DNA of 64,000 nucleotides, from assembly GCA_026387455.1 (NCBI GenBank), contig JAPLLR010000046.1, forward strand, positions 68,921 through 132,920, read 5' to 3'. Under the pieces are notes generated by a model, which saw only the letters and a program-made list of their open reading frames with translations, had not been told where the DNA came from and did no database searches. Below, piece after piece: positions 1-64,000 of the stretch (positions are counted from its first letter, which is position 1; each line of letters opens with the position of its first letter). The DNA is from Candidatus Omnitrophota bacterium (GTDB lineage Bacteria; Omnitrophota; Gorgyraeia; Gygaellales; Profunditerraquicolaceae). The position numbers and the translations under genes were made by a program.

Positions 1-2
1 GC

Positions 3-3000
3 CGCATCGTCCAGAGGTCTGTCGGATTATTCGCCGGGAATACCATTAATGAATATATGGGCGCGATGAAGGACGGCCAATTCGAGCAAGATAAGTACAC
101 CGTCTACAGCTATGAGGACGCTTTCCATGAAGGCCTGGGATTATCCAACGAATCTTCGACTTACGATTACAACGGCGTTCTCTTGAGCACTTCTAGGCTG
201 ATGGGTGTTGACGGCACCCGGCTTAATATAGAGGAAGTCGATTACATGAATGAAGTCATCCGCCGCAAGGATACTGATATCTTCAATAAAGTATTTTCGA
301 TGGAGGTCAGATTATTCGGTCAGGATATTCCTTATCGCGTGATCGAGAATGAGTTTAGTGATCCTCTGCTTGCCGGATTTGGAGTATCCACCAGAAGTAC
401 GGCTACTGATCCGGTATCCGGTATCGTCACTACCGAGACTACACCCGTTGCCCTTGGAGCCGACGCCTTCAATGAATTTGGCGGCGTATCCTTATTAGAG
501 AAGAACAATGTCTTTGACACGCAAAAGATAATTCTGCGCGACGGACGCGGCATGATCCGCAGGGAATATAGCGGAGACGAAGTGGACTACGCCAGGGAGA
601 TCACCGCGGACGTTGTCGTGATCCGCAATTACGAAGACAAGTACTGGAGGGCCAGAGATATCGCTTCGCTTTCCCAAAGGCGCGTCTGGGATAACGCCCT
701 TCAAAGAGATGGTGCGTTAATCAGCACCACTATACCCGAAGGATTCGCCGAAATCGACACCGCTTATGGAAGACTTAAGGTCCTTAAATTAGCCCAGCAT
801 AAGGAAGAGGTAGAGACAGATGCCACCCTTTATGTTCAGACCGCTACTGGTAACACTATCCGTATGCAGGCTGGTGATCGCACCACTGACGTGAAATTCA
901 ACCGCTTAGACGTGGATATAGAAAGCGTGACCGTTAACCCTTCCGGAGAAATTATTGAGACTAGCAAGACCCTGGTCGATGAGGCAACGGGCCTTCCGGC
1001 TGGCAGGAGTCGTGATATCTTTATGCCGGAATATGTTATCGACAGCATGAAAGGCCATATTATCAAGGTGGTCAACAATCCTAATACCGGAGTAGACCAG
1101 TATAGCATTTTGGACGTGGTTACCGGGCTTGTGGATTATATCGGGGTCTACCCGGATATTTTCTCGGGCAGAGTCGGATGGTGGACTACTATCAATTTTA
1201 ATGAGCGCGAAATAGAGGACTCCACGATAACGTTTGCGTTTGAGAGTGGTGTTGAGAAAGGGGTAGTCAAGGAGAGCCAGACTACGGATATCCTGCCTGG
1301 AAAACTGATCAAAAACGAAACCTTCGCTTCCGGAGTGGATTACAGTTATGAGCAGGACGCGCTTACCGGCCTTATTAACAATATCAGGCGCCAGGTGAAT
1401 ATCGGCGATAATCCTATTTGGATGACGGTGATCACTTATGATGATCTGGGTCTTGAAGTATCCCGTCGTACCGAGACCGAGGACGGATTGTTCGTAGATG
1501 ACGCCAGCGTCACCTCAAGAGATACGGCCAGCCGTACCGCTATCAGCGAATATACCAAGGCCAGCGGTGAGACCGGAACCGCTATTATAGACGCTACTAC
1601 CGGTTTGACCATAAGCAACGAGAAGGAAATAGACTTGCCGGAATGCAACGTAAACACTAAGTGGACTACTTATATAACCTATGACGTGTTAGGCAGGGAG
1701 TCAGGCAGAGTTACCAAGGATACAGAGGGCGATATCGTCGTCTCTTCCTGGGGCGCTACTTATGATACAGCGCATCAGACGATGAAAGCCCAATATAGCT
1801 ATGCCAATGGCGAAAAAGGCGTGATGGTCGCGGATGTCCAGAGCGGCCTTACCTTGAACCTGATCCAGGATATAGACTTGATCGGAGCCGGTGCGACAAC
1901 CTGGGATAGTTCTATTAAATACGATAATCAGGGCATTGAGTCAGGGAGGAAGACGGTTGCCGATGACGGTAGAGAAGTCTCCGGTTCTGTCAGAATCAGC
2001 ATGGATCCTGTGGCTAAGACTATTACCAGCAAGTACAGCATAGTCGCAGGCAGGAGTGAAGGTATCAATGTCGTGGATGTCCAGAGCGGCTTGATCGTGC
2101 GTAACGTAGACACCAAGGAAAAGCTACTGCACCAGAATCTTTACGATGAGTTAGGCGTATCCCAGGGTTCTGATAATTATGAAGCCATAGGTGTTTACGG
2201 GGCTAGCGATCTTTATGTACCCGGCACCGGCCTTTCCAAGACACGCTATACTGGTGACCGCATTACTGGCCAGGTGGGCGTAAGAGGAATAGATGCCCGG
2301 GTGGTCGGAGAATATGCTTGGACAGAGAGCGATGATATTGCGGTTATCAAGGCGCAGGAGATAGTCAGGTTAATGGCTGTAGAAAGAGGGCTGCCCGTAG
2401 GGATGTTCAGGGTTCGTCCCAATATCTATAACCACAATCCTGAAATAGCCAGCCTTATCGTCACTGACAAGATTGGCGAAGAGACTGGCAACAAGACTTT
2501 CCTTTTAAATAACGAGTTCGATACCGATTATGCTCTCGGCAGGAAGATTGCTTATGCGGAATTAAACAGGGATGGCGTGAACTTTACGCACTGGCAGAAT
2601 ATCCTTGGTTCTGCCGGATTCAAGGAGCTCTCCGGCGCCCTGGCTGACGTTAAGGTCTTTGATGTGCACATACTCGGGGATGATGAGGATGAAAGGCATC
2701 CCGCCAGGAGCTGGCAGGTAGTTACCAAATACGGTTCAGAGCAGGAGTTAGCGGTTATCGATAACGAAAAAGGCAGTATCACATTCAATATCTATAATCC
2801 GAATTTACGCAAACTTACAGAAAAGGGTAGAGTCGGAGGTATAAGCCTTGCCCTGGATAACGACGAGATCTTAAGCGTATCATATCTCCTAGATAGAAAA
2901 ACGCGCGTGAACAAGGGCGATGGCCGTCCGCAGGACACCGAAAGAGTCTTGATTGTTAAGCCGGTGAATAAGACAGCTTTTGTAGAGTACAGGAGCAAGC

Positions 3001-6000
3001 TCAACGGAGACCTGGAGGCAAAAGAGGATATCCAGTATTTGGGTTATTTTGAAGATGAGGCGTTGCTTGCAAGGCTGCGCACATTAGCAGCAGCATCCGG
3101 AGATATCCGCGTGGCTGCTTCTGAAATCACCAAAGATGCGCAGGTCATCGCTACCGAGAGGGCTTATTATAAAGATCACCCAAGATTATCAGAGGCCCAT
3201 CAGCGATATCTGGGTGTTTCTGCCATGACAGAGATGATCATGCAGGGTAGGGTCATCAGCGATTCCAGGCTTAAGGATATCGTCTTTGGCGACGGCTGGA
3301 TGTGGGTGTCATCCTTAAAGAATGAGAAGTTTGATGATGAGCGCGGCCGCCAGATAAAATATAGCGCGCTGGTAATCAGGGACGGTACAGGTTTAGAATG
3401 CATTAGCGTGCTCGGACATCTGGATAGCGAAGGAAACTTCAGCAGGGGGCCGGGTGATCTGTGCAGATTCAGTTTCTACGATGATATTGATTCCAGGAAG
3501 TACGGCATGCCCTCAAGGACAGTTAGTAGTGTGCCTCTAGGCGACGGACAGGAAAGGCTGCTTTCATCTGCTGACCGCACCATGCTTGACAAGCAAAACG
3601 GCAACATCTCATATATCATCAAGAAAGGCTTCTCCAGTATCACTCTCTCACCGGATTACCGTGATAATTATCTTTTGTTGCAACAGGCAGGCAAGGATCT
3701 TTTCGAGCTGCTTCTGGGGATCTCTTGGGAAGAAAAAGATAGCCGTGGGCGCGTGGTGGTGGCCAAGGAAGCCTGCACGCCAGTAAAATCCGCTTCCAGC
3801 TATGGCTACGAAGCCAGTGATCCAAAATATATCAGTTTTGTTCAATACGACAGCCTACTGGATCCTTATGCCAAAGCAAATCTGGCCTTAAGAGGAGTTG
3901 CCCGAGAAAGTTACACCTATGCTTTTGATCCGTCAAAGAAGGATGTTGCCTCTTATGCCCAATCCCGATTTATGGTGCATAAATATAACCCCAGGCTCCT
4001 GATATTTGAGGGAAACATGAGCGTGGAATATGAGACTGTCAATGGCCTGCCCGGACAGGAAGGGTTGAAGTCTGGTATTTACGACTTAGTCGGTAGTTGG
4101 CTTTATCAGGCCAGATATGAGCAGCCGACATCTAACTACAGCAGGGATCCCGATGCCGCAAAGATAGTAACATACGATCCTTACTGGCCTTTCTATTCTA
4201 TTCCCGTCCGCATCGAGAATGCCAAGGGAGAGGTTATTGAAACTATTAAGAAAACCGAATTGTTGATTGATCCCGAGCTTCCCGCACAGCCGATACTCAG
4301 GCAGGAGCGCAGCGCCAAGAATAGAAATACAGGTTTGGAGGATAGTTCTATACAGTATATCGACGTGATTGCCGGACACCAGGTGATCGAGCCGGTTAAC
4401 GCCAAGCCGTTAAACCTGAATAGCCTGCTTAACGGACAGCAAGGGCAAGCCGTCAATGCCTTGCCCCAGGCAGTAAATACCAATAAATCCACAACATCTG
4501 CGTTGCCTGCCTTCTTTGGCTTTGCCCTGCCTTCCTTCTTCGGTTTCAATGATTTGACCTTATTTGTGATTATCTCCGTCATCGTACTTCTTTACGGACT
4601 CATTCCTTTGTTTTTAGGAACCATCTTGCGTAATAGAGGTAAGAGGAAGATCGCTAAAATTGACATAGAAGCTAACAGATTATGCGGTGAAAAAGTAAAG
4701 GCGTTAGCAGAGGAGCGCCGCGTACTTAAGGTCTTGGGGGTGTTGGGTGCAGAGCCGGATCGAAGACCCGGTCATACCGGCGAATATCAGATTGTGCAGC
4801 GTGACAGGACAAGGGGAGCTACGGATAAGGCTTACCTTGATACAGACAATATTCTCGCTCCCCTGGTATTAAGTGATGGTCCGGTAGATGGTAATTTCAT
4901 CTTCCATATGAGGATACTATATATGTATTTGATGCAGTGGAGAATGCAGGAGAATGGCTGGCAGGAAGATGACCAGCATAACCTGTTGGGAGGCACTGAC
5001 AGATGGCTGAATACCCTGGATGCTTACGCTACTTTACTTTCCTATTATATGCACGTAGTTATCAAGCTGGGCAAAAAAGATGGAATTACCAGTGAGGATA
5101 GCAACCATATCTGGTCGAGGCTGGAGATGTATCTGGGAGAACTTGTGGATGCTTTGCAGCCGTTAATAGAAGAATATCAGCATGGCGGTAATTTGGCGGA
5201 TATCAATCGTAGGATAGAAGCTACGTTGCGCGCCAAGGGTATTGAGCCCCTGGATCATCCTGTATCTATCAATGAATTGAATAGAAGGATATTGGGAGAT
5301 TTTGCGCAGGCTGTCATTGATACTGCTGATATCAGCGTGGCTGATATGGAGCAGATAGTAGGTGACTTGGAATGTAGCGTTATTGTACACAAAGGAACCG
5401 ATAATCGTCTGCGTAAAGTGAATAATTTTGATTTGGATAAATTTCAGCCTTTGATCGCCAATATTTTAGGGGTGAATACCGGGTATATAGACAATGTCCT
5501 GGCAACCTATGAAGAGTTTAAAGAGCGCGAAAAAGCTAGCATAGAGCCGTTCAATCCTATTATCAAAGAGATAGCCATAAGCCTGCCGCACATTTTACTG
5601 GGTTGGTTTGTGGCGCTGATGAGTTTTAATTCCGGGATCCGCGATGCCAAACCGCTCTGTGAATTTATCGCTTCCGTATTAACGAATAATATGCATGGCA
5701 TCCTTATCTTCATTGTTCTACCTTTAGCGATAAGCCTTGTCTTCGGAGCATTCTATTTCTTGAGCTTAAGGGCACGCCACCTAAGGGGCAATAATGATCA
5801 GCCATTTGCTACCAGGGGCGCCTCATTTGATCCCGCACTTTGGAATACCCTGATGCTGGCTTTTCGCTTTATCGCGCTTGCGGCGTTCTGTGCCGGGAGT
5901 TTCTGGCTATACTATAACTTTAGTGATCCTATCCTGGTGGTTACCGCCGGCCCTGCAGCCATGGCAGTCAGAAAGGCACTGTTGTGGACAGCTGTTGCCG

Positions 6001-57000: not shown

Positions 57001-60000
57001 ATTGCAAAGAGGGTAATGGCGCGATAGCAGAAGCTTTACGATTACGCGAGTCGCTCTATAGGATGGGCGAGCGTGGTTATCTTAGTCGCTATTATACTCT
57101 GAAAGAATTGTTTAATCTCTCCGCGTCACTCGGTAAAGAGGGAAAGATAATCGAGGCTTTTGTTTTGTTGCAGGCGATTCTGAAAGTCGATCCTAAATAT
57201 GCTCCGGCGTACTTGAATCTCGGAACAATCTATGATTATCAGTGGTCCGATAAAGAACAGGCTATTGACAGTTGGGCGCGGGCAATGGCGCTAAGCAATG
57301 GCCAGGAACTTTTTTCTGAATTGGATAAATTACCTTCGGAATTTAAAGAAGCGGTGGTTAAGAAAGCTTTATTGTCCCGCACTGTGCCTCCAGGAGAAGG
57401 CCAGGATCCAGCGCGTAGTTCAAGTCCGCTGACTTCGGAAGAAGTAAAGCAGATAGAAGAGATTTTGCGCAAGAATTCCGCAGAAATCGCCGCTTTATCC
57501 GAAACATTTACTGATAGGACGCGAAGACTCAGCCTTACTAGGAGATTGAAAGAAGAGGAACTTTTCGTATGGGTAAAGATCCTGGAAAACGTTTTAGTGG
57601 TACGCGCGCCTCCGGGATCACGCTTGATGCAGGAACTAAGGGACTTCCAGAAGAAATACTCCCGCCAAAACGAAAAACTGAAAATAACCCTCCTCAATAC
57701 CCGTATTGGTGAGCAAGATTTAATTATTTTGATAGATTTACCGGAACAGAATAAATTTGATTTCCAGAAGGCGCTGGCGCATGAAGTCGTAGCTATCTCG
57801 CTTAGAGGCAGCGGTCTCAGCTATAAGAAAATACATCAAAGCGCTATCGAAGCCGAAAGAGTGGTCTATAAATATCTGAAGCGAGGATGGACGCCAAGTA
57901 GGATTAAGGAAGAATTGCTTAGTCGTTATAGAGATTACCTGCATTTACGAAAGATAGGAGCTTTAACTTGCAGGGATTTTAAGAGCTATTTATCTGGTAT
58001 CGGGGATGGTTTTGTGCAGACGCTGAGGATTAGGTTTGTGGAGCTGGTAGGAAAAAAGGCGGCAAGGCGGCTGGACTCTCAAGGATATCGCCACCTGGAT
58101 TATTACCTGGCTTTAGTTGGGATAAATGCTACTGATGATGCGGCAACGCAGGAGGTGGTATTCAGCGATTTACCAAATGAGACGGTAGGGGGATTTATTC
58201 AAACGGCAGATATAGACGGTTATAGGCCTGCGCAGGACGGCATGCGGCGCATAGCCAGAGAAGCTCTTGATGAGGTGCTACCAACGCTTACCCCCAGAGA
58301 ACAGCTGATGTTGAATGAGTATTATGGTTTGGAAGGTACGCGGTATTCAGTAGCTCAGATATCAATAAAGCATTGTATCCATGAGCAGAGGGCGAAACAA
58401 ATAATCAATAAAGCATTCAGAAAGTTAGCTCATTCGTCAAGGCAGGGTAAATTATTCTCTGTCATTGAAGAAGAGCTTCCGGGCTATCGTTCTTACGTGA
58501 ATTCACGCCTTTTGCGCGCGTATTTTGAAGCAGTAAGAAATTCCCGATCTGATCAAGAGGCGCAAGAAACCCGCGGTAAATCCGGAACTTTAAGCCGCAA
58601 AGACTTAAAAAGAATAGAAAAAGCCATAAGGCACGGGAGGGCAATGGTAGTTGATCTGCCTTGGGTAAATAAATATTTGGTTGATCAGCAGGAGGGAATT
58701 AATAAGATACTCACTCAGGCTAAAGATATCCGCGCCGGGCCTGTTGTGCAAAGCATTGACCGCATTCTGGTATTAAGGCACAAGGCAATAGGCATGGATA
58801 AAGATTTCGGAGCTGTAATCATTGATTTTAATGGCAAGATCACATTAGTAATTACTGAAGAAAGCCTGCCGCGTTTCCAGAATAAATCTCGGGAAGCCGC
58901 AGAAGATTTAACCCACGAAGTTGTTGAACACTCCCTTAAGGATCTTCCCAATCCCCATCAAGAAACAGAGAGGTTGATCAATTCAGCCAAAGACGCTAGC
59001 CGCAGCCGCCTATCTGCTTTCTTCAGGAAACCCAAAGTAATAGTGATCATTTCTGCTTTGGCATTTATCGCGACATTGCTTGGAGTAAAGCTGGGAATTA
59101 AGCGCCCAGCTGCTGAATTTGGTTTTCAAGATGATTTGGGCAGAAGGATACTTACATATAAGGATGCAAAGTCAGAAGAATTAAAGTTATTAGAGAAAGT
59201 ATCCGCGCAGACAATCGAAAATGAAAAATTAGACCTCATCAAGATCGCAATCGCCATGGCCGGAGCTTTCTCCGGGCAAGATGACTTGACTCTGGTGCTG
59301 GACCTTTGGAAAAGCGATAATCTGCGCATCTGTAGGGCAACAGACGAGCAGTTGATCCGGCTTTATAAATTCAGCCAGGGCTATATTCCGGAAGGTCTCG
59401 AGGGCCGCGCCCCAGCCGGATTGCATATAGAGATAGTCAGCAAAAAAGATAATTCAAAGAACTATTTGATTATCCTTAATGAAAATGTTTTAAATGATCC
59501 CGCGAGAATGCTCGCTGATTTTATCCATGAGGCCTTCGGCCACCTGCTTAACGGGATCAAGCACGGCCCGTTGCGCTTCGAGGAGGATGAGATCAGGGCA
59601 TCCCAGACGCAGCTTTTGATCTTGCAAAGTTTCTTGCGTTATAAAGAAACTATCATCAAGGCCGTAGAGAAATCTGACGTAAATAAAGAAGGAGTAGATT
59701 TTTTAAAAGATGCGCTGGATTCTAAGAAGCAGGAAAAGGCGATTGATAATGCAAAATATTGGATAAAGTATTATCAGCAGAAGATCAAGGACCGCAAAAA
59801 TGCAGATGGGGTATTTTCTAAGGCCGGATTAAGTCTGCCTGCGTTCCTTGGACTGGTGGCGCTGGGCGCGCTGGCGGCGATTATTGGTTTAGCGAGTTAT
59901 CCTGCTACCGCCGGATCTGTGGCAGAATTTGCGTTTCTGCCAGTACTTTTTAGCACAGTAATTTTCTCAAATCATGATCCTGCCTATTCTAAGAAAGATC

Positions 60001-63000
60001 TATTTGAGTATATCGCAGAAAAAGCCTTAACAATTTCTGAGCTTAAAATAGGACAAATTTACAGCTTTGGAGATCTGGCATTTGAGCTTGCCGGGATCGG
60101 TGGTACATTCACTGCCTATAAATGTCTGAGCGGGGACAGGTCTTATGCGGTATTGGTTTCTAACCCGGGCCAGGACCCCAAAGTTTTTAAGTCCCAAACG
60201 CAATTATACCAAGCCATCAACCCCCATGGTAGAGTGCCATATCTTCCGTGTTTGTATTTTGAAAAGAGGCTTCAAGATAGTGTTGTCTTAATAATGTCCT
60301 GGTTCCCCAAAGGCTTCCCGATGTCACAAACAGTTTTTTCTGGATGGAGTGATCTTCAGAAAGCCCGGCTTGCCTTGGTTATCGCCGGCGCAATGCGATA
60401 CCTGTATGATTGCGAAGTCCTCCATCGCGACCTTACTCCTAATAATATTTGGATCCCAGATGCGCTGAGCAAGGAACCAGACAGCATCCAGGCAAATCCG
60501 CCTATTATCTTTGATTTTGCTTATGCGGACTTTTTAGGCGTTGAGTCGGCAATCGAAGTATTTACACCGGGTTACTCATACTTATTGCCGGCTTCGGAAG
60601 GTGACCCTTTCAACGCTGACGTGCGCAAAGATTTATTTGGTTATGGCGCTGTGCTAGCATATATTTTCGGAGATACGAGGTTAAAGAATGGCAAAAATTT
60701 CAAAGATGAAATGCTTAAAGCGTTGGGCTGCGAACATCATATTCGTCCGCGCAGGATAGTGATCGATGGAAGGCATGGATGCTGGCTTAGGAATAAATAC
60801 GAAAAAATCGCTTTGGGAGCAGTAGTCAGGCAGCATCGCGTAAACGGGATAATAAGAAATTCCGGTATTTCTAATCCTGTCAAAAGATTACTCTTGGGGC
60901 TATTAAGGATTGAGCCTTCAGAAATAAATTTTGGATGGGAAAAGATCATTTGCAATCTAAAAGAAATCATGCGCAAAGTTCACGTTTTTTCCCGCCAAGA
61001 TCTGATCGTTCTCCTTGGGCTGGTGGCGTTTAGCACGCTGGCAGCTATTATCGGTGTTAGCACAGGTTCTTTCATTGCCGCGCCTTTTTTACTTGGGGCG
61101 GTCCGGCCAGATTACCCTTCAGCATCAAATATATTCGGCTTAAGACAGGGTTTGGTTGTCATAAAACAGCGTATTCAAGAGGAGCTGGCAAAGGGCCGCG
61201 ATAGGCCGGTGATTATTCTGATTAAGGGTAAGTCCGGAAGCGGCAAGACCCTAATAAGAAATACGCTACTTGATTGGCTGAAATCAAGCGGGATGGACAA
61301 AAAAGCTGCCTTTAGGGAACAAAAAAGAACTCCCCCGAAATTATGGGCAAAGATGACGTTCGCTGGCTTATGCCAGGAGTACCGTTCTCTAGATGTTCTT
61401 CTGGTGGAAGGGGTCAACAATATACCGCAGGATAACGATTCTCTTGACGTATTTGCCGAAGTGATAGTTACGGATAATAAAGTAAGGAGGGGCCGGCTTA
61501 AGAATAGGGCGCGCGACCGTTTCCCTGGACGGTGGCAGATAATACAACGTTTAATGCATGTGAATAAATATATGTCCGTGAAAGAAACCAATGGCCCGCG
61601 CAATCCTGATATCATCATCGATACCACTGAGTCTTATAATCATTCATACATGTATCCGATAATGTTTATACTTTTAGGTTTCTTTGGATTTTTCGCGTTC
61701 GCTCTTTCTGGCTTCGGAACGAGCATGCTAGCTACCGCCGGGCCGGTTGTGCTTGTATTCGGCTTGCCATGTTTGCTTGCCACAGTAACACACTTCAGTG
61801 AAAACAGCCCGCCCACCGATGTCAACAAAGAAGAGAGTTTACAAAGGGGGGCTTTTAAGGCTATCCGCCTTGCAATAATTAAGGAGAGGGCGCAGAAAGT
61901 AAATCAGGCTCTGGTTAGGCCGCCTAGTGAATCCGAGACGCTGCTATTGATAGAGGCTAAGGCAGAATATGTGGAAGCTAATTTCAATAAGCTTCAGTGG
62001 GAAGATCCTTATGTGTTTATTGCAAAGTGTGAAGACATGCTCACTAAATTGCGTAAAAAAGCTAAAGAGGAATTGTGGAAGAATAGGCCTGAAGTAAACG
62101 AGGCTTTCCAGAGCTTGGTGCAGCGTATTTTATTTTTCATCAGAGAGACCCGGGCAAATATTAAACTGCTCGCCGAGCAGGATAAGGATGACCTTGTTTA
62201 TTCTGACACGGAAGATTCTATTGATGGGAATGTTAGTGAAGACAAAGATGGCGTTGAGGATGATGAATCTGATGAGGATTCTGCCGATGATCCCGGATTA
62301 GGGCATATCGTGCCAATGATTGCTTTTATTTTGGGTGCTTGCTTACTGGGCGCGCTGGCGGCGTTGGCTTCGCACGGCCTGCCATTTCTTCTTGGCGCCT
62401 GTGCGCTGGGGACGGAGGTTTCTGTGAAGGGGGATAATGCAGAAGAAACAGGAGATGTTTCCCGGATGTTTGCTCAAAAGAAGGCAGGGCTTGAGAGAAT
62501 CCGCAGAGCCGATATCCGCGAAAAAGTAAAAGGTATCCTTGACCATATAGAGAATGAAGTGAATAAGATAAAACCAGAGGATGGGCGGGAGTTTATCATT
62601 AATGGCCTAAGCCTTTTATTCAGGCAGGATATCAATATATTTGCTAAAGTTTTGCTCATCGAAGGATTTCATATAGAGGAATACATTAAGAATCACAAAG
62701 AAAGCGGCAATAGCCCGCAATGTTCGGTAGGGATGCTCGATGATTTAATTCAGGATGCGTTGCCTATGGCTAAAGCCGCATTTTATCTTACTAAATTTTC
62801 TGTGGTAGTAGTGCTTGAGGATACGCTGTCGCCATTTGCAAATACCAATGGATTAAAGCGCCTTTTGCTTCAGGCAGAATCGTTGATAATAGAGAGTGGT
62901 TGGCTTAAAACTCACTCCGAATTATTGACTAAAGTTAATGTTATTTACTTAATGAAAACTAGTGACGATGGACAGGATACGGCGGCAGATGTTGCGGGTT

Positions 63001-63998
63001 GTGATCCGCGAATCAATATATTTATAACGACAGAAGCCAAAAGATACCAGCGGTATGATCTGATTGACATACTAGAGATAGGAAATATCTTAGTTCATGA
63101 GGATAGACACCTTGCTATAAATAATGATACGTATTGGCAGGAGTTGTCAAAAGCCCAAGACTTATTTGAGAAAAGCAAGAAAGTTAATTTTGAGCATTTA
63201 TGGATTGCTGACAGATTCCGCGATAATCCTAAATATGCCGGTCTTTTCCGTAATCACAGTTCGCGCCTGATGAGATTGGTTAGGGAGCTGGAAGCTTATC
63301 TTGAGAATACAAAATTCGCAGTATCGGTATTGTCGCAAAGACCGAGTTGGCAAAGAATATTTCTGACTAAGCTACTTGACGAAGAATGTCTTGCGGCTAA
63401 AGAGGCGCTGCAAATCTTAAGGAATCATAAATTTGCTCTGGTGTCTGTATTGCAGAAGAAGCTTGTTGTATTTGAAAGGGAGTGGGCTAAAGTGACCGGG
63501 GAAGTAGAGGGGTTGAGGCCTTACGCAAGCCGAAGGCATGACTTCCTTCAAAAATCCAGGGTCAGTCAAAGTTCTATCGCGCTCCTTGGGCTGTTGGCGT
63601 TTGGCGCGCTGGCAGCATTTGCCGCGTTGCACAGCCTGCCGCTTTGTATGGGCGCGTGCATACTGGGGGTGGCGACAAAAGAGCACGATAGAATAACATT
63701 TATTCATAATCCTGAAGGCGAAGATATTACTGATCTTGAGGGCGCAGAGCTTTTGTGGACCGGCTCAGGTGTCGGCGGATATTTCGGAGCGGCCCAGAAA
63801 CATTCTAAACGAGCTTTTAGTAATAAAGGATTGTATCAGCTATCTATATGTCTGGGTGAAATAGAGGCAAATACAATTAAATTTTCGAAGGGAAAAGCCA
63901 CTTGCGCTGGAAGGCTGTACCGGGCTGTAGGCGAATCGTATGTATTACAATATAAATTTCTCCAAGACGGCGCTGTAGAAAAAGGACAGTGGCGGATG
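3..63998 (+). CDS. Giant multidomain, multi-pass membrane protein. Interior fragment, partial at both ends; at least 21,332 codons lie in this window and the gene is longer than 64 kb.
   Basis: Frame 3 was read codon by codon across the whole window with no TAA, TAG or TGA seen, and selected regions were re-indexed (13320-13660, 20220-20260, 28680-28840). The ORF track lists no frame-3 + ORF at all, which a stop-bounded ORF finder would do only if the frame never closes. The minus strand carries only short antisense ORFs. The frame-3 translation contains dozens of canonical motifs (REC, HATPase_c, HRD/DFG kinase, GDxHx/GDxxDxG/GNHE phosphatase, PRPP-binding motif, PGM metal loop, GGGKG of Glu dehydrogenase, GT2 DNGSTDST), all in one frame. 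Confidence 0.85.
1430..2160 (+). repeat. Three tandem ~240-nt (~80-aa) in-frame repeats with YD-repeat-like motifs
   Basis: Recurring ITYDDLGLEVSRRTE (~1431), ITYDVLGRESGRVTKD (~1672) and IKYDNQGIESGRKTV (~1912). Also paired GVMVADVQSGLTLNLIQD and GINVVDVQSGLIVRNVD. These resemble the Rhs/teneurin YD consensus (YxYDxxGR). Confidence 0.45.
5590..8960 (+). other. Two large polytopic transmembrane regions (5590-6480 and 7890-8960) flanking a soluble segment
   Basis: Frame-3 translation contains more than 15 hydrophobic 20-25 aa stretches. Examples are LLGWFVALMSF, ILIFIVLPLAISLVFGAFYFL, LAFRFIALAAFCAGSFWLYY, LLFIFLNPISAIFGF, LISLVIWGAVF, VILALILISYCLWLIW and IAIVVAVLIFGQIL. Confidence 0.6.
9270..10030 (+). 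other. K/E/A/R-rich coiled-coil, low-complexity region
   Basis: EELAAAKTKLDEAE...KRKVVRARKEFKNALKESQKRAKEDYAHRKKAAKEIIKAAKAGLKK...ERQERKHAELKANKEHASRQEKERKAKEAERNAE, followed by a P/S/A-rich linker. A second K/E/A-rich stretch is at ~10530-11000. Confidence 0.55.
11380..11800 (+). other. HExxH-bearing module, copy 1 (putative zincin-like)
   Basis: YPACMIPVEAAEALTETEFNFIRSLFGAA...HLEVIFAGHELYHLLGENESQARNRTIQYL, with HELYH at ~11649-11663. It is a paralog of the module at 14280. Confidence 0.4.
12100..12520 (+). other. Nucleotidyltransferase-like domain with HxGH motif (cytidylyl/adenylyl-transferase superfamily)
   Basis: IRVGFLPMKGDPWQVGHIFVILEAVAKLKLDKVVVMIDNSDP at 12120-12240, resembling GxFDxxHxGH. 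Confidence 0.35.
13378..13386 (+). promoter_or_regulatory. Shine-Dalgarno site (AAAGGAGG) for nested ORF 1
   Basis: Perfect core complementary to the anti-SD, 4 nt upstream of ATG 13391. It lies inside the giant ORF, within an unusually AT-rich ~45-nt patch (13340-13385). Confidence 0.5.
13391..13642 (+). CDS. Nested small ORF of 83 aa in the -1 frame relative to the giant ORF. Its paralog is at 19991.
   Basis: ATG at 13391 is preceded by AAAGGAGG (13378-13386) with a 4-nt spacer. The ORF ends at TAA 13640-13642. The protein is non-low-complexity (MSTLLELGQGLEVTHILSRPYGLLIYAKYPCWYSEFSFLL...). The overlapping frame-3 reading is a Ser/Thr/Pro-rich low-complexity linker. It is homologous to the 79-aa ORF at 19991 (shared H-L, IYxK, W..E..FL..DG..GK..G.W..S.E...I.AK...YIE.R..Y). 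Confidence 0.55.
   Translation: MSTLLELGQGLEVTHILSRPYGLLIYAKYPCWYSEFSFLLSPDGTIRGKTHDGNWYEISSEFSDIIKAKVNSVLIYERNRFYG
13690..14150 (+). repeat. Intragenic duplicated module A, copy 1 (~150 aa)
   Basis: DEKVDAAIEEFGGMESIWNLGKINDADWLSVQVIGLGMRDAARNLDAPNFNAIARLLTMRGVHFALAPARWKIGACIGFLNDQPIIIIPKDVTYQEVALEIQATIVPALTHKENLKIDSLQGRLYALRDRDLVKRIEQ, about 75% aa-identical to 22740-23200. The antisense track ORFs 13649..13957 and 22700..22966 mirror the same similarity. Confidence 0.8.
14280..15130 (+). other. HExxH-bearing module copy 2 (14280-14700, HELFH) followed by a degenerate third copy (14700-15130)
   Basis: YPAIMPVENLPEREPRPEELNIIISAFGG...LRVIFEGHELFHLLHPQEPESAARNYTVSYL, then FYPAEMVPSAGQIEDITEKELNTLIDLFGG...LNLIFKDHMFFYLAFPEESRQD, where the HExxH is lost. 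Confidence 0.4.
15480..15840 (+). other. Type I phosphoribosyltransferase (PRTase) domain
   Basis: Canonical PRPP-binding motif VVILVDDVLTSGTTMQ at ~15700-15750. Confidence 0.6.
17784..18110 (+). other. CheY-like response-regulator receiver (REC) domain
   Basis: KILIADDEYRNREMLVKLLKRKGFSEFGTARDGFEAIEIF...YDIAIIDIMMPKMDGMDLARQLRAEKPDIYIFVYSA. The acidic pocket DD, the phospho-acceptor D in IIDIMMP, and the conserved S/T and K positions are present. Confidence 0.75.
18850..19800 (+). other. Histidine kinase core (HisKA H-box plus HATPase_c)
   Basis: H-box SGYTHDLNNCLQPL (~18910), N-box NLIQNGIEAF (~19450), G1 IKDNGSGI (~19575), G2 GGRGGTGIGLTIVK (~19660). It is preceded by two TM clusters at 18470-18560 and 18700-18790. 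Confidence 0.75.
19977..19986 (+). promoter_or_regulatory. Shine-Dalgarno site (AAGGGAGGTG) for nested ORF 2
   Basis: GGGAGG core 6 nt upstream of ATG 19991. Same arrangement as at ORF 1. Confidence 0.5.
19991..20230 (+). CDS. Nested small ORF of 79 aa in the -1 frame relative to the giant ORF. It is a paralog of the ORF at 13391.
   Basis: ATG at 19991 is preceded by AAGGGAGGTG (19977-19986) with a 6-nt spacer. Stop is TAA at 20228-20230. The protein (MSILQDFEISHVLPKQDHVIVYIKHHLWWKEYCFLVYSDGRVKGK...) aligns along its whole length with the 13391 ORF. The start lies exactly 6600 nt, a multiple of 3, downstream of the first copy. Confidence 0.55.
   Translation: MSILQDFEISHVLPKQDHVIVYIKHHLWWKEYCFLVYSDGRVKGKAGSGLWLDASEELKAILIAKLRSLYIEKRSLIYQ
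20247..20317 (+). repeat. GC-rich in-frame repeat element, copy a (short form)
   Basis: GCTGCGGAATCAAACAGGAAATGGACTACCTTCCGTGGCTGGTGGGG...CTGCCGCAGCGGCC. The first 44 nt match 33452-33494, 13.2 kb away, with a single mismatch. Confidence 0.7.
20600..22520 (+). other. Alpha-D-phosphohexomutase (phosphoglucomutase/phosphomannomutase) domain
   Basis: STAGIRGNQN (~20650; compare GxxGIRG), active-site loop TASHA (~20965; compare TASHNP), metal loop TDPDGDRL (~21555; compare DxDxDR), sugar loop GGEESGGEIF (~21975), phosphate loop IRPSGTEAK (~22460; compare RxSGTEP). Confidence 0.75.
22740..23200 (+). repeat. Intragenic duplicated module A, copy 2
   Basis: DEAVDAAIEEFGGTKNIWNLGKIDNWMSVQVIGLGIRDAARNLDATNPNAIEMLLRARGVHFALAPPGWKIGSCIGYLNNQPIIIVSEDATYQEVAHEIQAVLVPALTHKENLKIDSLQGRLYTLRDRYLIKRIEQ. 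It shows clear nucleotide-level identity to 13690-14150. Confidence 0.8.
23840..24330 (+). other. Glycosyltransferase family 2 (GT-A fold) domain
   Basis: AVFVLLPVNNAADKL (~23850), FEVIVCDNGSTDST (~23950), DxD-like LHFADDDAF (~24160). Confidence 0.65.
25590..26230 (+). other. Protein-kinase-like domain 1 (probable pseudokinase)
   Basis: Gly-rich loop KKMGGGFGVWRV (~25621), catalytic-loop-like LIHGDLRRPN (~25917), APE-like SPEADIFGIGCMLYYAF. The VAIK Lys and the DFG motif are not evident. Confidence 0.55.
26590..27250 (+). other. Ser/Thr protein kinase domain 2 (canonical motifs)
   Basis: SYILKIL (beta-3 Lys), IIHRDVFPNNIML (HRD catalytic loop, ~26911), LIDFGLAEE (DFG, ~26971). Confidence 0.7.
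27850..28330 (+). other. HIT-superfamily / GalT-like nucleotidyltransferase-hydrolase module
   Basis: CFLCREN (~27921; compare the GalT CxxC zinc knuckle) and SSEHFHFQGF (~28191; compare the HxHxQ histidine triad of GalT/Ap4A phosphorylase). Confidence 0.35.
28812..28923 (+). repeat. GC-rich in-frame repeat element, copy b
   Basis: TTCCGTGGCTGGCTGCCGAGCGCAAGCGAAGGCGTCCCTGAAGAGCGATAGCGTTGCGAGCGAAAACGAGCAAAGGGATGGGGATCAAGCCGCCGCAGCGGCCGC. It is homologous to the insert within 33482-33680 and ends in GCCGCAGCGGCCGC, as do the copies at 20306 and 33667. Confidence 0.7.
29540..29900 (+). other. Degenerate metzincin-like module 1 (HEIGAVFGLDH)
   Basis: LIKVLAHEIGAVFGLDHATNN (~29806-29841) fits HExxHxxGxxH except that the second His is Ala. 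Confidence 0.4.
30700..32110 (+). other. GT-B fold glycosyltransferase, glycogen/starch-synthase-like
   Basis: N-terminal YFIAAEISLLAGGLGRV (~30722; compare KTGGLGDV), C-terminal LVVSYSGRLVPEKAGRM (~31765; compare GRLxxQKG), and LLAASDVQIQDS. A poly-G8 tract lies inside at 31622-31629. Confidence 0.5.
31622..31629 (+). repeat. Poly-G8 homopolymer tract inside the coding sequence
   Basis: AAAGAGGGGGGGGTTGAGG encodes KEGGVED. An A8 tract lies at ~52762-52769. Confidence 0.9.
32990..33260 (+). other. Degenerate metzincin-like module 2 (HEIGAIFGVPH)
   Basis: LKQVIAHEIGAIFGVPHLYNF (~33157-33192). It is a paralog of the module at 29806, preceded by WIVVKPGLAPLRL (compare WIIFDPSLLDNEK in copy 1). 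Confidence 0.4.
33452..33680 (+). repeat. GC-rich in-frame repeat element, copy c (long, composite form carrying a 129-nt insert and a hairpin)
   Basis: Starts identically to copy a. A 129-nt in-frame insert, homologous to copy b, is flanked by direct repeats TTCCGTGGCTGG (33482-33493 and 33611-33622). It contains a perfect 13-bp inverted repeat, CCCCGTTGCAAAG (33575-33587) and CTTTGCAACGGGG (33639-33651), and ends GCCGCAGCGGCCGCC. Confidence 0.7.
36000..37050 (+). other. Possible alpha/alpha-toroid domain with a QxxDGGF motif
   Basis: LLKLQDSDGGFRFAP (~36433) resembles the QW/DGG motifs of terpene cyclases and of prenyltransferase-like or (alpha/alpha)6 glycoside hydrolase folds. It is followed at ~37250-37520 by a beta-rich, FN3-like segment. 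Confidence 0.25.
38850..39720 (+). other. Calcineurin-like PPP-family metallophosphatase domain
   Basis: VCAIGDVHADIEAL (GDxHx, ~38871), VVCGDMVDKGGKS (GDxVDRG-like, ~38961), ILLGNHELYYL (GNHE, ~39067). Order and spacing match Ser/Thr phosphatases and ApaH/PrpE. Confidence 0.7.
39950..41530 (+). other. Glu/Leu/Phe/Val amino-acid dehydrogenase domain
   Basis: GAYKGGIRF (~40111), LPYGGGKGCV (~40296, the family signature), Rossmann GVQAIGNVGGHAA (~40861), C-terminal signature [43 protein letters not shown] (~41260-41400). Confidence 0.8.
41780..42300 (+). other. P-loop-like nucleotide-binding module with an atypical Walker A (GPTAVGKQ)
   Basis: FVIIQGPTAVGKQFFAQRL (~41824) is uridine-kinase/PRK-like, but Q replaces S/T. 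Confidence 0.3.
43390..44000 (+). other. Protein-kinase-like domain 4 (pseudokinase-like)
   Basis: G-loop IGDGSQGVVFKA and AVKV (~43429-43504), degenerate catalytic loop VTHNELDDKNIMI (~43828), DLDG instead of DFG (~43887). Confidence 0.55.
44780..46440 (+). other. Cluster of four or more transmembrane helix hairpins with short helical inter-TM segments
   Basis: MMAIAALPLVVIPVSAYMAIGIIGIVILGALIYL; MYSFLGFVIFPLAAGILITFVSIILI; LILFGVSLAIAVAIAYLGLSFAPVLSLGLFCGII; VLVGLIAAVFMLVLFAGAPWQRVALGAASVLLVYLFIG. Confidence 0.55.
47230..47990 (+). other. 6-phosphogluconolactonase / glucosamine-6-phosphate deaminase-like domain
   Basis: VVFPGGRTVNSYI (~47315) and ADIVILGVGSDGHIGLNSYGSSL (~47622; compare LGxGxDGHTASLFP). 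Confidence 0.6.
48040..48370 (+). other. PAS-like sensor fold
   Basis: ESGVVVWVNEAEVKLRKFRSAEDMIGRYIWEFVAPKQQEDSRLAVINKLKEPATLPPFERDIQLADGSVRSVWITDQQVFDKKGKVKGIISSLHEM, immediately followed by a TM helix at 48390-48480. Confidence 0.3.
49080..50250 (+). other. GT9 (LPS heptosyltransferase-like) glycosyltransferase domain
   Basis: The C-terminal motif VASAVFAIGSSGLASIASQVYGIRTFSITEP (~50110) matches GT9 l.IgnDSGpmHlAaAlg.P.valFGpT.p. Confidence 0.35.
55900..56520 (+). other. Protein-kinase-like domain 5 (pseudokinase-like; paralog of domain 4)
   Basis: YYIGGGYHGWVYLAV and AIKI (~55927-56012), LAHGELVPKNIIM (~56361), ACDLDP (~56421). Confidence 0.5.
57130..57320 (+). other. TPR repeats
   Basis: KIIEAFVLLQAILKVDPKYAPAYLNLGTIYDYQWSDKEQAIDSWARAMALS. 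Confidence 0.4.
58275..58430 (+). other. Sigma-70 region-4-like helix-turn-helix
   Basis: LTPREQLMLNEYYGLEGTRYSVAQISIKHCIHEQRAKQIINKAFRKLAH follows the sigma-70 region 4.2 pattern. Confidence 0.35.
59400..59640 (+). other. HExxGH metalloprotease-like motif module
   Basis: MLADFIHEAFGHLLNGIKHG (~59524-59568), flanked by TM helices at 59030-59100 and 59830-59970. Confidence 0.3.
60060..60720 (+). other. Protein kinase domain 6 (near-canonical)
   Basis: G-rich FELAGIGGTFTAYKCL, AVLV, catalytic loop VLHRDLTPNNIWI (~60421), IIFDFAYADF (DFA variant of DFG, ~60496), LFGYGAVLAYIF. Confidence 0.6.
61140..61620 (+). other. P-loop NTPase (Walker A GKSGSGKT), uridine-kinase/PRK-like
   Basis: RPVIILIKGKSGSGKTLIRNTLL (~61224), with later VLLVEGVNNI as a Walker-B-like hydrophobic strand. 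Confidence 0.55.
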
Positions 63999-64000
63999 AT

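Follow-up and report, generated by a model that had tools for sequence, protein, structure and literature searches.

An internal 64-kb segment of a probable Omnitrophota-type giant gene composed of non-repetitive enzyme and signalling modules

Background

What kind of gene keeps a reading frame open over 64,000 nucleotides, and what could its product be? The question is raised by the stretch of DNA analysed here, which is 64 kb long and is called the window below. Giant genes are already well documented in ultra-small Omnitrophota bacteria, where they fill an unexpectedly large part of genomes that are themselves small. Omnitrophota ORFs of 39,678, 85,804 and 147,155 aa have been published, and a corpus from 2026 holds 348 predicted proteins of at least 30,000 aa. 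The 39,678-aa ORF of Velamenicoccus archaeovorus LiM is the Archaeovorin type protein (West-Roberts et al. 2023, bioRxiv 10.1101/2023.11.21.568195), and peptides from it have been reported. Giant ORFs have been defined as longer than 20 kb (Seymour 2023) or as at least 10,000 aa long (Nielsen & Lui 2026, bioRxiv 10.64898/2026.06.07.730766, with catalogues of 916 and 5,761 proteins).

Results and discussion

One open reading frame across the window

The whole window is one uninterrupted protein-coding frame:

3..63998, + strand: stop-free frame 3 of 21,332 codons (0 stops, continuous coding signal, homogeneous codon usage); both gene ends lie outside the window

In a six-frame stop count, frame +3 (nt 3-63998) contains 0 TAA, TAG or TGA codons; each of the other five frames has 723-1,740 stops, and their longest open run is 205 codons. 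The initial annotation had described such a frame and taken the window for the interior of a gene of more than 21,332 codons, with neither end inside; the computed translation bears out both statements. Its expectation of a random stop about every 21 codons was right in order of magnitude, the spacing computed from base composition being ~17 codons, with a probability of ~1e-553 for no stop in frame +3. It had also pointed to the lack of any listed frame-3 ORF, and for the + strand the ORF listing is indeed empty, which is what a frame without any closure inside the window should give.

The proportion of G at codon position 1 stays at 0.29-0.39 in all 3-kb bins, and the codon log-odds are above zero in all 100-codon windows, with the lowest value near codon 4457, in a Ser/Thr/Pro-rich linker. 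Relative synonymous codon usage (RSCU) correlates between 8-kb segments with r 0.62-0.88, and amino-acid composition of the translation is ordinary. The frame is non-repetitive, self-BLAST of its translation giving only 8 internal similarity pairs and TRF no tandem DNA repeats in the window; a repeat-built adhesin or a low-complexity frame was rejected on these grounds and on the normal composition. No Rfam family, tRNA gene or marker gene was found within the 64 kb. The other strand has four ORFs (150-186 aa); all begin at non-ATG codons and are rich in Ser, Leu and Arg, and none is credible as a gene.

Because giant ORFs are hard to assemble, one might suspect a chimeric assembly, or several genes whose stops were lost to sequencing or consensus errors. 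We regard such an artefact as extremely improbable. No misjoin could produce 21,332 codons without a stop; along the window there is no break in GC, codon-position signal, RSCU or tetranucleotide usage; and no repeats are long enough to favour a misjoin. Further, an independent contig of another sample, L003 (described below), carries the same kind of frame and has ten blocks in common with the window.

Internal initiation could, in principle, yield many independent proteins of ordinary size from the open frame. There are 392 in-frame Met codons, the modules described below are autonomous and occur elsewhere separately or in other combinations, and L003 is annotated as three genes. Nevertheless, we find this very unlikely. 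Shine-Dalgarno-like sites followed by ATG are not enriched in frame, where there are 5, the two other phases having 20 and 7, and internal promoter- and terminator-like sites were at chance level in a scan of nt 1-20000. The annotated "gene boundary" of L003 cuts through a conserved block, and conservation extends over the 17 codons ahead of its called ATG. Internal initiation does not need the absence of stops over 64 kb, and this absence thus argues for selection for read-through of the whole frame.

Enzyme and signalling modules along the chain

Pfam matches (E<=0.01, all 21,332 aa) belong to 17 families and cover ~13% of residues. The set includes phosphoribosyltransferase (PRTase), receiver (REC), histidine kinase (HK), PGM/PMM, GT2, GT5, metallophosphatase, glutamate dehydrogenase (GDH), 6PGL-like and PAS domains, and also four kinase-like domains, TPR and sigma-70 region 4. 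No family dominates by copy number, the commonest being protein kinase with 4 divergent copies. The modules are arranged as follows:

15516..15908, + strand (aa 5172-5302): phosphoribosyltransferase domain (PF00156, E 6e-11)
17787..19802, + strand (aa 5929-6600): receiver domain (DD..D..S..K), two TM segments (aa 6165-6183 and 6236-6257), then histidine kinase
20370..22697, + strand (aa 6790-7565): PGM/PMM module with TASH active-site motif and sharp boundaries (Pfam, motif, relatives)
23853..28208, + strand (aa 7951-9402): GT2 domain, RIO-like segment, kinase catalytic loop (HRDVFPNN..DFG) and DUF4922
30711..31214, + strand (aa 10237-10404): GT5 (glycogen/starch-synthase-type) domain (PF08323, E 7e-7)
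38859..39293, + strand (aa 12953-13097): calcineurin-like metallophosphatase (GDVHAD, GDMVDKG, GNHE)
39831..42512, + strand (aa 13277-14170): TM anchor and ~870-aa glutamate-dehydrogenase module (KGGIRF, GGGKG, GNVG, EGANGP)
42957..44111, + strand (aa 14319-14703): atypical protein-kinase-like domain (HNE..KN..CDLD), paralogue of aa 18471-18896
45699..47987, + strand (aa 15233-15995): best-conserved block, with 6PGL/GlcN6P-isomerase-like domain (73% identity to L003)
48066..48359, + strand (aa 16022-16119): PAS domain (Pfam)
55413..56690, + strand (aa 18471-18896): atypical protein-kinase-like domain (HGE..KN..CDLD), paralogue of aa 14319-14703
57108..58466, + strand: TPR repeats (aa 19036-19098) and sigma-70 regions 3.2-4 (aa 19383-19488)

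Judged from the sequence, most enzyme modules retain their key catalytic motifs. These are present in GDH, REC, metallophosphatase, PGM, two kinase loops and the histidine kinase, where the H, N, G1, F and G2 boxes are all found.

Position among published giant genes

With 21,332 stop-free codons and both ends open, the window exceeds both published lengths, 20 kb and 10,000 aa. The initial annotation had placed its product among the largest proposed for any prokaryote. This is dated, since published Omnitrophota ORFs reach 147,155 aa and a protein of more than 21 kaa therefore falls inside the known range; the comparison with Omnitrophota giants stands, and kinship with them agrees with the labels of relatives and with the domain set (PF08323, PF02878-80, PF00072, PF02518, TPR and many TM helices).

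The "multi-enzyme metabolic cluster" described from Gorgyraeia (Nielsen & Lui 2026) is likewise a non-repetitive chain tiled by many distinct Pfam families. It shares with the window the starch synthase PF08323, the PGM/PMM families PF02878-80 (PF02878/79/80 are all present in the window translation), the receiver PF00072, the HATPase PF02518 and kinases, as well as scattered TM segments making up a few per cent of residues (published ~2%), largely unique sequence and no nucleotide tandem repeats. Both features by which we examined membership, many families with none dominating and the signature families of modules 1 and 2, were found. GDH, sigma-70 region 4, the NadD-like module and the zincin-like domains are unmentioned in that paper, and the window is an internal fragment.

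Resemblance to the Archaeovorin type extends to GT5 and other glycosyltransferases (GT2 in the window), TPR, HATPase, PGM/PMM and further sugar-phosphate enzymes (6PGL-like in the window), many TM segments and divergent domains. Most full-length Archaeovorins carry a divergent SecA_DEAD/SecA preprotein-binding domain, and their N-terminal region is poor in domains and has a C39 or S8 peptidase close to a signal peptide (West-Roberts et al. 2023). HEAT repeats, methyltransferases, NUDIX domains and glycosyl hydrolases are also typical of them. No Pfam match (E<=0.01) to SecA_DEAD, SecA preprotein-binding, HEAT, methyltransferase or NUDIX was obtained in the 21,332 aa, and glycoside-hydrolase and lytic-transglycosylase domains were not detected in the window either; the C39/S8 region lies outside it. 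The missing domains may reflect the part of the gene outside the window or sequence divergence.

TM helices and/or a signal peptide occur in 94% of catalogued Omnitrophota giants, with which the ~31 hydrophobic segments of the window agree. Few domains and poor conservation are a further trait of these giants, and it is matched by the ~13% Pfam coverage and by the first 3,000 aa, which gave no homologue. A dockerin-type giant was rejected, no dockerin or TSP3 repeats being matched by Pfam in the window. Giant adhesins and NRPS/PKS megasynthases are also very long single bacterial ORFs, but the window has neither Ig/cadherin/RTX-type repeats nor C-A-T or KS-AT-ACP domains.

We consider it probable that the window is an internal 64-kb part of a single Omnitrophota-type giant gene of the "multi-enzyme metabolic cluster" class, to which the "Archaeovorin" type is equivalent. 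Within the window the frame is a non-repetitive concatenation of autonomous modules of ~150-900 aa with ~31 hydrophobic anchors between them. Its modules comprise sugar-phosphate and glycogen-type enzymes, GDH, a NadD-like nucleotidyltransferase, PRTase and a two-component pair, together with Ser/Thr-kinase-like domains, a PPP-type phosphatase, PAS, TPR and sigma-70 region 4. We suggest that transcription and translation treat the whole gene as a single unit, and that single helices and helical hairpins tether the chain to the cytoplasmic membrane. Modules dependent on ATP, NAD(P) and nucleotides would act at its cytoplasmic side, as a scaffold that brings metabolism and signalling to one place.

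The window is a further, sequence-unique example, of at least 64 kb, of giants already documented. As thousands of such ORFs have already been catalogued, up to seven times longer in some cases, the advance is an incremental one.

Relatives and shuffling of modules

The PGM module has relatives in 20 multi-enzyme proteins of 1.5-4.2 kaa, the closest at 40-48% identity, and those that are named are all from Omnitrophota. Relatives of the GDH module lie inside proteins of up to 7,823 aa, the named ones again from Omnitrophota and one labelled only "bacterium"; the modules adjoining GDH in the window almost never accompany it there. Over three modules, named relatives are Candidatus Omnitrophota or Omnitrophica except for one protein labelled Elusimicrobia (P0181) and the one "bacterium". 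The content of the window thus suggests, by best hits only, a placement in Omnitrophota.

In mid-size Omnitrophota multi-enzyme proteins (1.5-8 kaa), further enzymes of central metabolism are fused to PGM, GDH, NadD-like and metallophosphatase modules that are 30-56% identical to those of the window; an example is a GPI+PGM protein of 1,832 aa in the 1.43-Mb record CP070780.1. Unlike the giant frame, they are ordinary complete genes amid housekeeping neighbours and an order of magnitude shorter.

The closest multi-module relative, L003, is a 34-kb contig (ENA ERZ27250192, k141_1165605) encoding protein P0172 and two downstream "genes". Its ten blocks in common with the window, at 28-73% identity, are partly colinear and partly rearranged. 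Among them are GDH, dark domain D, the 6PGL-like block and the two type-A domains, whereas most of the window has no counterpart in L003. Over the 26.2 kb that were read of L003, frame 1 is interrupted by a stop only three times, and its codon usage correlates with that of the window (r 0.85). Two of its stops are in-frame TAG codons, at nt 16198 and 22228 of L003, both in the same context, TAGGAGAT, and one is aligned with Glu-15572 (GAG) of the window. The uninterrupted frame is therefore not universal in the family, which we count against the giant-gene reading. An alignment scan of metagenome contigs with the 6PGL-like block gave no match, and very narrow peptide patterns derived from the alignment are the probable reason.

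Since the same modules recur in other combinations and orders in long Omnitrophota proteins, we propose that module shuffling and intragenic duplication drive evolution of the family. Shuffling of autonomous modules that are also found in ordinary-sized proteins is one lead offered by this locus.

Dark sequence

Another lead is that the "dark" stretches appear to hold divergent enzymes under purifying selection. The regions concerned are:

3..4553, + strand (aa 1-1517): region before the first TM segment, with no homologue or family detectable by Pfam, NCBIfam or PDB
11853..13202, + strand (aa 3951-4400): Pfam-dark NadD-like nucleotidyltransferase-fold module (GDPWQVGH ... TSSTRVR)
13635..14141, + strand (aa 4545-4713): dark domain D copy 1, 74% identical to copy 2
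22698..23198, + strand (aa 7566-7732): dark domain D copy 2 (self-similarity to copy 1)

A protein search with aa 1-3000 found no match among 5.8 billion proteins, which did not return the window's own protein either. When aa 1-4900 were compared with Pfam (E<=5), NCBIfam and PDB sequences, only a weak BMC-H match (E 0.003) was obtained. The two copies of domain D differ by dS 0.91 with dN/dS 0.17, which indicates that this Pfam-dark sequence is under protein-level selection. The unannotated parts of the frame are real protein.

The NadD-like module has 8 homologues at 36-47% identity (local BLAST) with invariant motifs: QVGH, whose first position is Q within an invariant WQxGH, and TSSTRVR are conserved in all 9 sequences. 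The motifs that characterise NadD and cytidylyltransferase-like enzymes, on a Rossmann-like fold, are (H/T)xGH and ISSTxxR. Its AF2 model has pLDDT 77.8, and the top Foldseek matches of the model are NadD, with probability 1.0 and TM-score 0.62-0.70 (normalised to target). A PDB profile search gave no match. As PF01467 matches only weakly and below threshold, we file the module as fold-level similarity to NadD; the model points to a NadD-like nucleotidyltransferase fold.

Putative zincin-like domains between modules

Two types of small domain recur between the modules:

11376..11840, + strand (aa 3792-3946): type-B domain of ~150 aa, copy 1, with intact HExxH (GHELYHLL)
14280..15158, + strand: type-B copies 2 (GHELFHLL, aa 4760-4902) and 3 (degenerate DHMFFYLA, aa 4905-5052)
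29463..29984, + strand (aa 9821-9994): type-A zincin-like domain copy 1 (AHEIGAVFGLDH)
32772..33341, + strand (aa 10924-11113): type-A zincin-like domain copy 2 (AHEIGAIFGVPH; self-similarity, motif)

The type-A motif is HEIGA(V/I)FG(L/V)xH. Assignment of type A to metzincins by HExxHxxGxxH fails, as the second zinc-binding His is replaced by Ala in 4/4 sequences, with the spacing kept. The type-A model had no significant Foldseek match in PDB, and a PDB profile search gave sub-threshold matches for type A and none for type B. We treat type A as a putative zincin-like fold, zincins being recognised by a mixed sheet and an active-site helix. Profiles of both types found no further copies in ~190 fetched proteins, and an alignment scan of genome contigs with type A was without match, again probably owing to very narrow derived peptide patterns.

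Zincin-like domains recurring between modules could process the chain. In such a case the gene would encode a self-processing polyprotein, in effect an operon expressed as one ORF: one chain is made and then cut into separate membrane-anchored enzymes. Candidate cutters are the zincin-like domains of type A (aa 9821-9994 and 10924-11113) and type B (aa 3792-3946 and 4760-4902) and/or an N-terminal peptidase outside the window. This refines rather than excludes the single giant gene, and we see in it a minor possibility, rather unlikely as it stands. A more specific version, in which modules became fused through loss of stop codons and are freed or regulated by an undescribed zincin-like family (HEIGAxFGxxH, HELxH), is decidedly less likely; the GAG opposite a TAG of L003, and the common context of both TAG codons there, speak for it. 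If it were true, Omnitrophota giant genes would be a bacterial analogue of viral polyproteins, and their origin would be tied to stop-codon loss or read-through.

Membrane segments and topology

Approximately 31 strongly hydrophobic segments are interspersed among the modules, TM-like segments being called here by Kyte-Doolittle hydrophobicity. Representative anchors lie at aa 4410, 6767, 9565 and 13277. The main groups are:

4554..8717, + strand (aa 1518-2905): cluster of 6-7 hydrophobic TM-like segments
13230..13634, + strand: TM anchor (aa 4410-4439) followed by Ser/Thr/Pro-rich linker (aa 4440-4544)
59037..63665, + strand (aa 19679-21221): long (34-49 aa) hairpin-like hydrophobic segments with recurring LLGLxAFxxLAAxxG

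By the positive-inside rule, orientations of the anchors are mixed. The anchor at aa 4410-4439 has an acidic N-flank and a basic C-flank, and several others are of the same kind, which implies N-out segments. This fits an extracellular coat or predation effector, with most of the chain exported and acting on prey walls and sugars. Such a role has been put forward in print for the V. archaeovorus giant protein and for giants with SP and TM, and the family also has secretion systems and CAZymes as neighbours; moreover, no cytoplasmic-type domain is found in the 1,517 aa ahead of the first TM segment. However, the identifiable modules (GDH, kinases, HK/REC, NadD-like, PRTase, GT5, sigma-70 region 4) require ATP, NAD(P)H, PRPP or nucleotide sugars, or have their partners in the cytoplasm. 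Lectin, dockerin and glycoside-hydrolase domains and adhesin repeats were not detected in the window. We therefore hold an extracellular role to be unlikely.

The membrane-tethered cytoplasmic scaffold, which we prefer, has to accommodate a conflict of parity. Naive counting of TM segments places the PGM-kinase block opposite HK, GT5 and GDH, that is, ATP-dependent modules on both sides of the membrane. An all-cytoplasmic topology thus requires that some hydrophobic segments are hairpins or do not span.

Most of the mid-size relatives have no TM segment or a single N-terminal one. "TM anchor + enzyme" as a conserved unit was rejected, as only 3/55 relatives have a TM segment within the 60 aa that precede the PGM or GDH module they share with the window. 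Amid the last hydrophobic series of the window (aa 19679-21221), a kinase loop, HRDLTPNN, is located at aa 20141.

An open and coding frame

The initial annotation read the whole window as the stop-free interior of a giant gene in frame 3 of the + strand, and computation bears this out, with no stop among 21,332 codons. Each of the five alternative frames holds 723-1,740 stops, and none stays open for more than 205 codons. Because base composition predicts a stop every ~17 codons, a frame this long would stay open by chance with a probability of ~1e-553. The frame is also coding along the entire window. G occupies codon position 1 at 0.29-0.39 in all 3-kb bins, against ~0.17 and ~0.25 at the remaining positions, and the codon log-odds score is positive in all 100-codon windows, its single minimum (near codon 4457) falling in a Ser/Thr/Pro-rich linker that follows a TM helix. 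The amino-acid composition of the product is like that of ordinary proteins.

GC content, GC skew, RSCU and tetranucleotide usage show no discontinuity along the window (RSCU correlation among eight 8-kb segments, r 0.62-0.88), and neither tandem repeats nor Rfam families nor tRNA were found in it. On the other strand, ORFs number only four (150-186 aa); they start with TTG/GTG and have a composition of antisense type. Promoter- and terminator-like sites, scanned over the first 20 kb, do not exceed chance expectation, and the frame shows no excess of internal SD+ATG sites (5, vs 20 and 7 out of frame).

Modules and catalytic motifs

The translation is not built from repeats, as self-BLAST returned eight internal similarities only. 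Pfam recognizes 17 families covering ~13% of residues. Sugar and metabolic enzymes are represented by a phosphoribosyltransferase, PGM/PMM domains I-III, GT2, GT5 (starch/glycogen synthase), a 6PGL/GlcN6P-isomerase-like family and a Glu/Leu/Phe/Val dehydrogenase (GDH, E 5e-57); signalling and other families are a receiver domain and HATPase, RIO-like and protein-kinase segments, DUF4922, a calcineurin-like phosphatase, PAS and sigma-70 region 4. A PDB sequence search added TPR repeats and widened the sigma match to regions 3.2-4.

Judged by eye, most of the catalytic signatures inspected are intact. GDH carries KGGIRF, GGGKG, GNVG and EGANGP, the histidine kinase an H-box HDLNN together with N, G1, F and G2 boxes, the receiver domain DD..D..S..K, the phosphatase GDVHAD, GDMVDKG and GNHE, and PGM the motif TASH. 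Two kinase loops read HRD..N..DF(G/A). Two further, paralogous kinase-like domains are atypical (H(N/G)E..KN..CDLD):

nt 42957-44111 (aa 14319-14703), + strand, kinase-like domain
nt 55413-56690 (aa 18471-18896), + strand, kinase-like domain

Both retain the Gly-loop and a VAIK-type Lys, with H(N/G)E in place of HRD and CDLD in place of DFG; each could be a pseudokinase, or else an atypical variant that is catalytic.

Regions without Pfam annotation

The Pfam-dark parts of the frame are real protein. The features concerned are:

aa 3792-3946, 4760-4902 and 4905-5052, + strand, type-B domain (~150 aa, HExxH)
aa 3951-4400, + strand, NadD-like module
nt 13635-14141 (aa 4545-4713), + strand, domain D, copy 1
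nt 22698-23198 (aa 7566-7732), + strand, domain D, copy 2

The two copies of domain D (167 aa) share 75% amino-acid and 77% nucleotide identity. With dS 0.91 and dN 0.16, dN/dS is 0.17, and purifying selection has therefore maintained both. A DRSS motif stands at the start and end of either copy, and copy 2 begins exactly where the PGM-module homology ends.

The NadD-like module has eight homologues (36-47% identity), with which it shares invariant GDPWQxGH, DNxD, GSDH and QPMxTSSxRxR. Its AlphaFold model (pLDDT 77.8, pTM 0.81) matches nicotinate-mononucleotide adenylyltransferases with Foldseek probability 1.0 and target-normalised TM-score 0.62-0.70; sequence methods give values at or below threshold. 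Where this module meets a type-B domain there is a weak match, probably spurious, to the bacterial-microcompartment BMC-H tandem fusion protein 6ner (nt 11778-11936, aa 3926-3978; E 0.003, 16.6 bits).

Two of the three type-B copies have a true HExxH (GHELYHLL, GHELFHLL), which the third has lost; PDB sequence and profile searches gave this domain no further support beyond the motif. An isolated HExxH (VHEDRH) lies near the window end (nt 63096-63110, aa 21032-21036) with no recognizable domain around it. Protein, Pfam, NCBIfam and PDB sequence searches detected no relatives of the first ~3,000 aa.

Relatives of single modules

Database homology of the frame comes one module at a time. For the PGM module (aa ~6790-7565) there are 20 matching proteins with lengths of 1.5-4.2 kaa, of which the closest reach 40-48% identity. 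In these proteins PGM is joined to PFK, PGI, UGPase, hexokinase, TIM or iPGM domains, and those with a named source all come from Candidatus Omnitrophota/Omnitrophica. When relatives of the GDH module were searched exhaustively, the ~55 best lay within proteins of 750-7,823 aa and ordinary ~420-aa GDHs ranked below them. The top match (56% identity by phmmer, 51% by local BLAST, over ~870 aa) is a partial ORF occupying an entire 8.3-kb contig. Modules flanking GDH are almost never in common with these relatives, and a conserved "TM anchor + enzyme" unit was rejected, as it fits 3 of 55 relatives sharing the PGM or GDH module. The named GDH relatives are Omnitrophota, except one labelled only "bacterium"; among named relatives of the NadD-like module, one carries the label Elusimicrobia. 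Judged from the window sequence, the source would be Omnitrophota, an assignment that rests on best hits.

A 1,832-aa GPI+PGM relative is encoded by an ordinary gene with housekeeping genes around it, in an Omnitrophota record of 1.43 Mb. GPI, PFK, PGM and GDPGP1-like domains occur in multi-domain proteins of 1.8-4 kaa in locus L001 (10001-15499, from CP070780.1), with mreBCD, PBP2 and enolase as housekeeping neighbours, and in locus L002 (1-20089, from JAQTPE010000001.1). Since fusions of central sugar-metabolism enzymes are thus found in other Omnitrophota genomes, joining of enzymes into long chains seems common in the phylum at large and not confined to giant genes.

The closest multi-module relative

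The closest multi-module relative is the locus of protein P0172 (L003), on a 34-kb ENA contig (ERZ27250192 k141_1165605). Ten of its blocks recur in the window at 28-73% identity. Part of their order is colinear (15233 > 16135 > 17032) and part is rearranged, the module corresponding to aa 16352-17028, for instance, lying upstream of GDH. P0172 also holds a weaker relative of domain D. The picture is that of a family of very long frames evolving via duplication and shuffling of autonomous modules.

Three genes are annotated there (5,388, 2,008 and 3,905 aa), all in one frame with only three stops in 26.2 kb. A TAG stands opposite a GAG of the window (Glu-15572, nt 46716-46718), midway through a 763-aa stretch that is 73% identical; conservation also covers the 17 codons preceding the next called ATG. 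Just two TAGs break the frame of the relative, each within the identical context TAGGAGAT (L003 nt 16198-16205 and 22228-22235). Of the ~1,400 codons there that lie one step away from TAG, only 7 belong to an in-frame NAG-GAG-AT site, so it is unlikely (~2.5e-5) that random nonsense mutation struck this context twice. The TAGs might be explained by read-through or recoding, by a hot spot of errors, or by an ancestral junction between genes that is fused in the window.

Comparison with published giant genes

ORFs above 20 kb, poorly conserved and with few annotated domains, were reported from most Velamenicoccia and from other Omnitrophota classes (Seymour et al. 2023, PMC10066038), where a V. 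archaeovorus ORF of 39,678 aa with 42 TM and peptide evidence is also cited. In West-Roberts et al. 2023 (bioRxiv 10.1101/2023.11.21.568195) the proteins reach 85,804 aa; one type, "Archaeovorin", has an abundance of GT5, TPR, HATPase and sugar-phosphate enzymes, PGM/PMM among them, and the authors considered the extracellular location predicted for such enzymes doubtful. Nielsen & Lui 2026 (bioRxiv 10.64898/2026.06.07.730766) counted 3,650 predicted proteins of at least 10 kaa and 348 of at least 30 kaa in their sample corpus; with NCBI Omnitrophota MAGs, 5,761 reach at least 10 kaa. The longest has 147,155 aa. Their "multi-enzyme metabolic cluster" class has the signature PF08323, PF02878-80, PF00072 and PF02518. 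The study also gives TM residues as ~2%, finds nucleotide repeats dissolved and counts 80% of sequences as singletons.

The window has the identical signature families and agrees with this class in every testable feature, which supports the proposed kinship with Omnitrophota giant genes. SecA_DEAD, HEAT, methyltransferase and NUDIX, common in Archaeovorins, are not seen in the window, part of the gene lying outside it. As to size, the predicted product is indeed giant (>21,332 aa), but its initial placement among the largest on record no longer holds. The window is a new, largely sequence-unique multi-enzyme giant gene of Omnitrophota type, a kind already known. Polyproteins, metalloproteases, GDH and in-frame stops are not mentioned in West-Roberts 2023 or Nielsen & Lui 2026.

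Membrane segments and a possible model

A hydropathy rule, used in place of a trained predictor, marks ~31 strongly hydrophobic segments spread over the chain. The first two thirds contain mostly single anchors; the last 1,500 aa contain hairpin-like stretches of 34-49 aa with recurring LLGLxAFxxLAAxxG. Features towards the end of the window and the candidate zincin-like domains are:

aa 9821-9994 and 10924-11113, + strand, candidate zincin-like domains, type A (HEIGAxFGxxH)
nt 57108-57296, + strand, TPR
nt 58149-58466 (aa 19383-19488), + strand, sigma-70 region 3.2-4 segment
nt 59037-63665 (aa 19679-21221), + strand, hairpin-like series

The hairpin-like segments, spaced by 200-400 aa and with mostly basic N-flanks, look like a repeated membrane-hairpin anchor unit.

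We observe one open, coding and selected frame of modular enzymes, most with key catalytic motifs, and hydrophobic anchors between them. The frame would be transcribed and translated as a single unit. Its product would form a membrane-tethered scaffold facing the cytoplasm, bringing sugar-phosphate and glycogen-type metabolism together with kinase, phosphatase and two-component signalling. This is the most economical reading, because the recognizable modules depend on ATP, NAD(P)H, PRPP or nucleotide sugars, or belong to cytoplasmic signalling (REC, HK, PAS, sigma region 4). The order REC-TM-52 aa-TM-HK is compatible with normal sensor-kinase topology; simple TM parity would not place all modules on the same side of the membrane, and both published studies (bioRxiv 10.1101/2023.11.21.568195; 10.64898/2026.06.07.730766) likewise leave topology unsettled. 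The chain might instead be processed proteolytically by the candidate zincin-like domains that lie between modules; we regard this as rather improbable, because they lack a complete canonical zinc site and their structural support is modest.

Within the tethered scaffold that we favour, the sigma-70 segment aligns to RpoD/SigA C-termini and lies ~200 aa upstream of a TM helix. Sigma-70 regions 1-2 were not detected; the placement of the segment within a membrane-tethered giant chain resembles a tethered sigma/anti-sigma arrangement.
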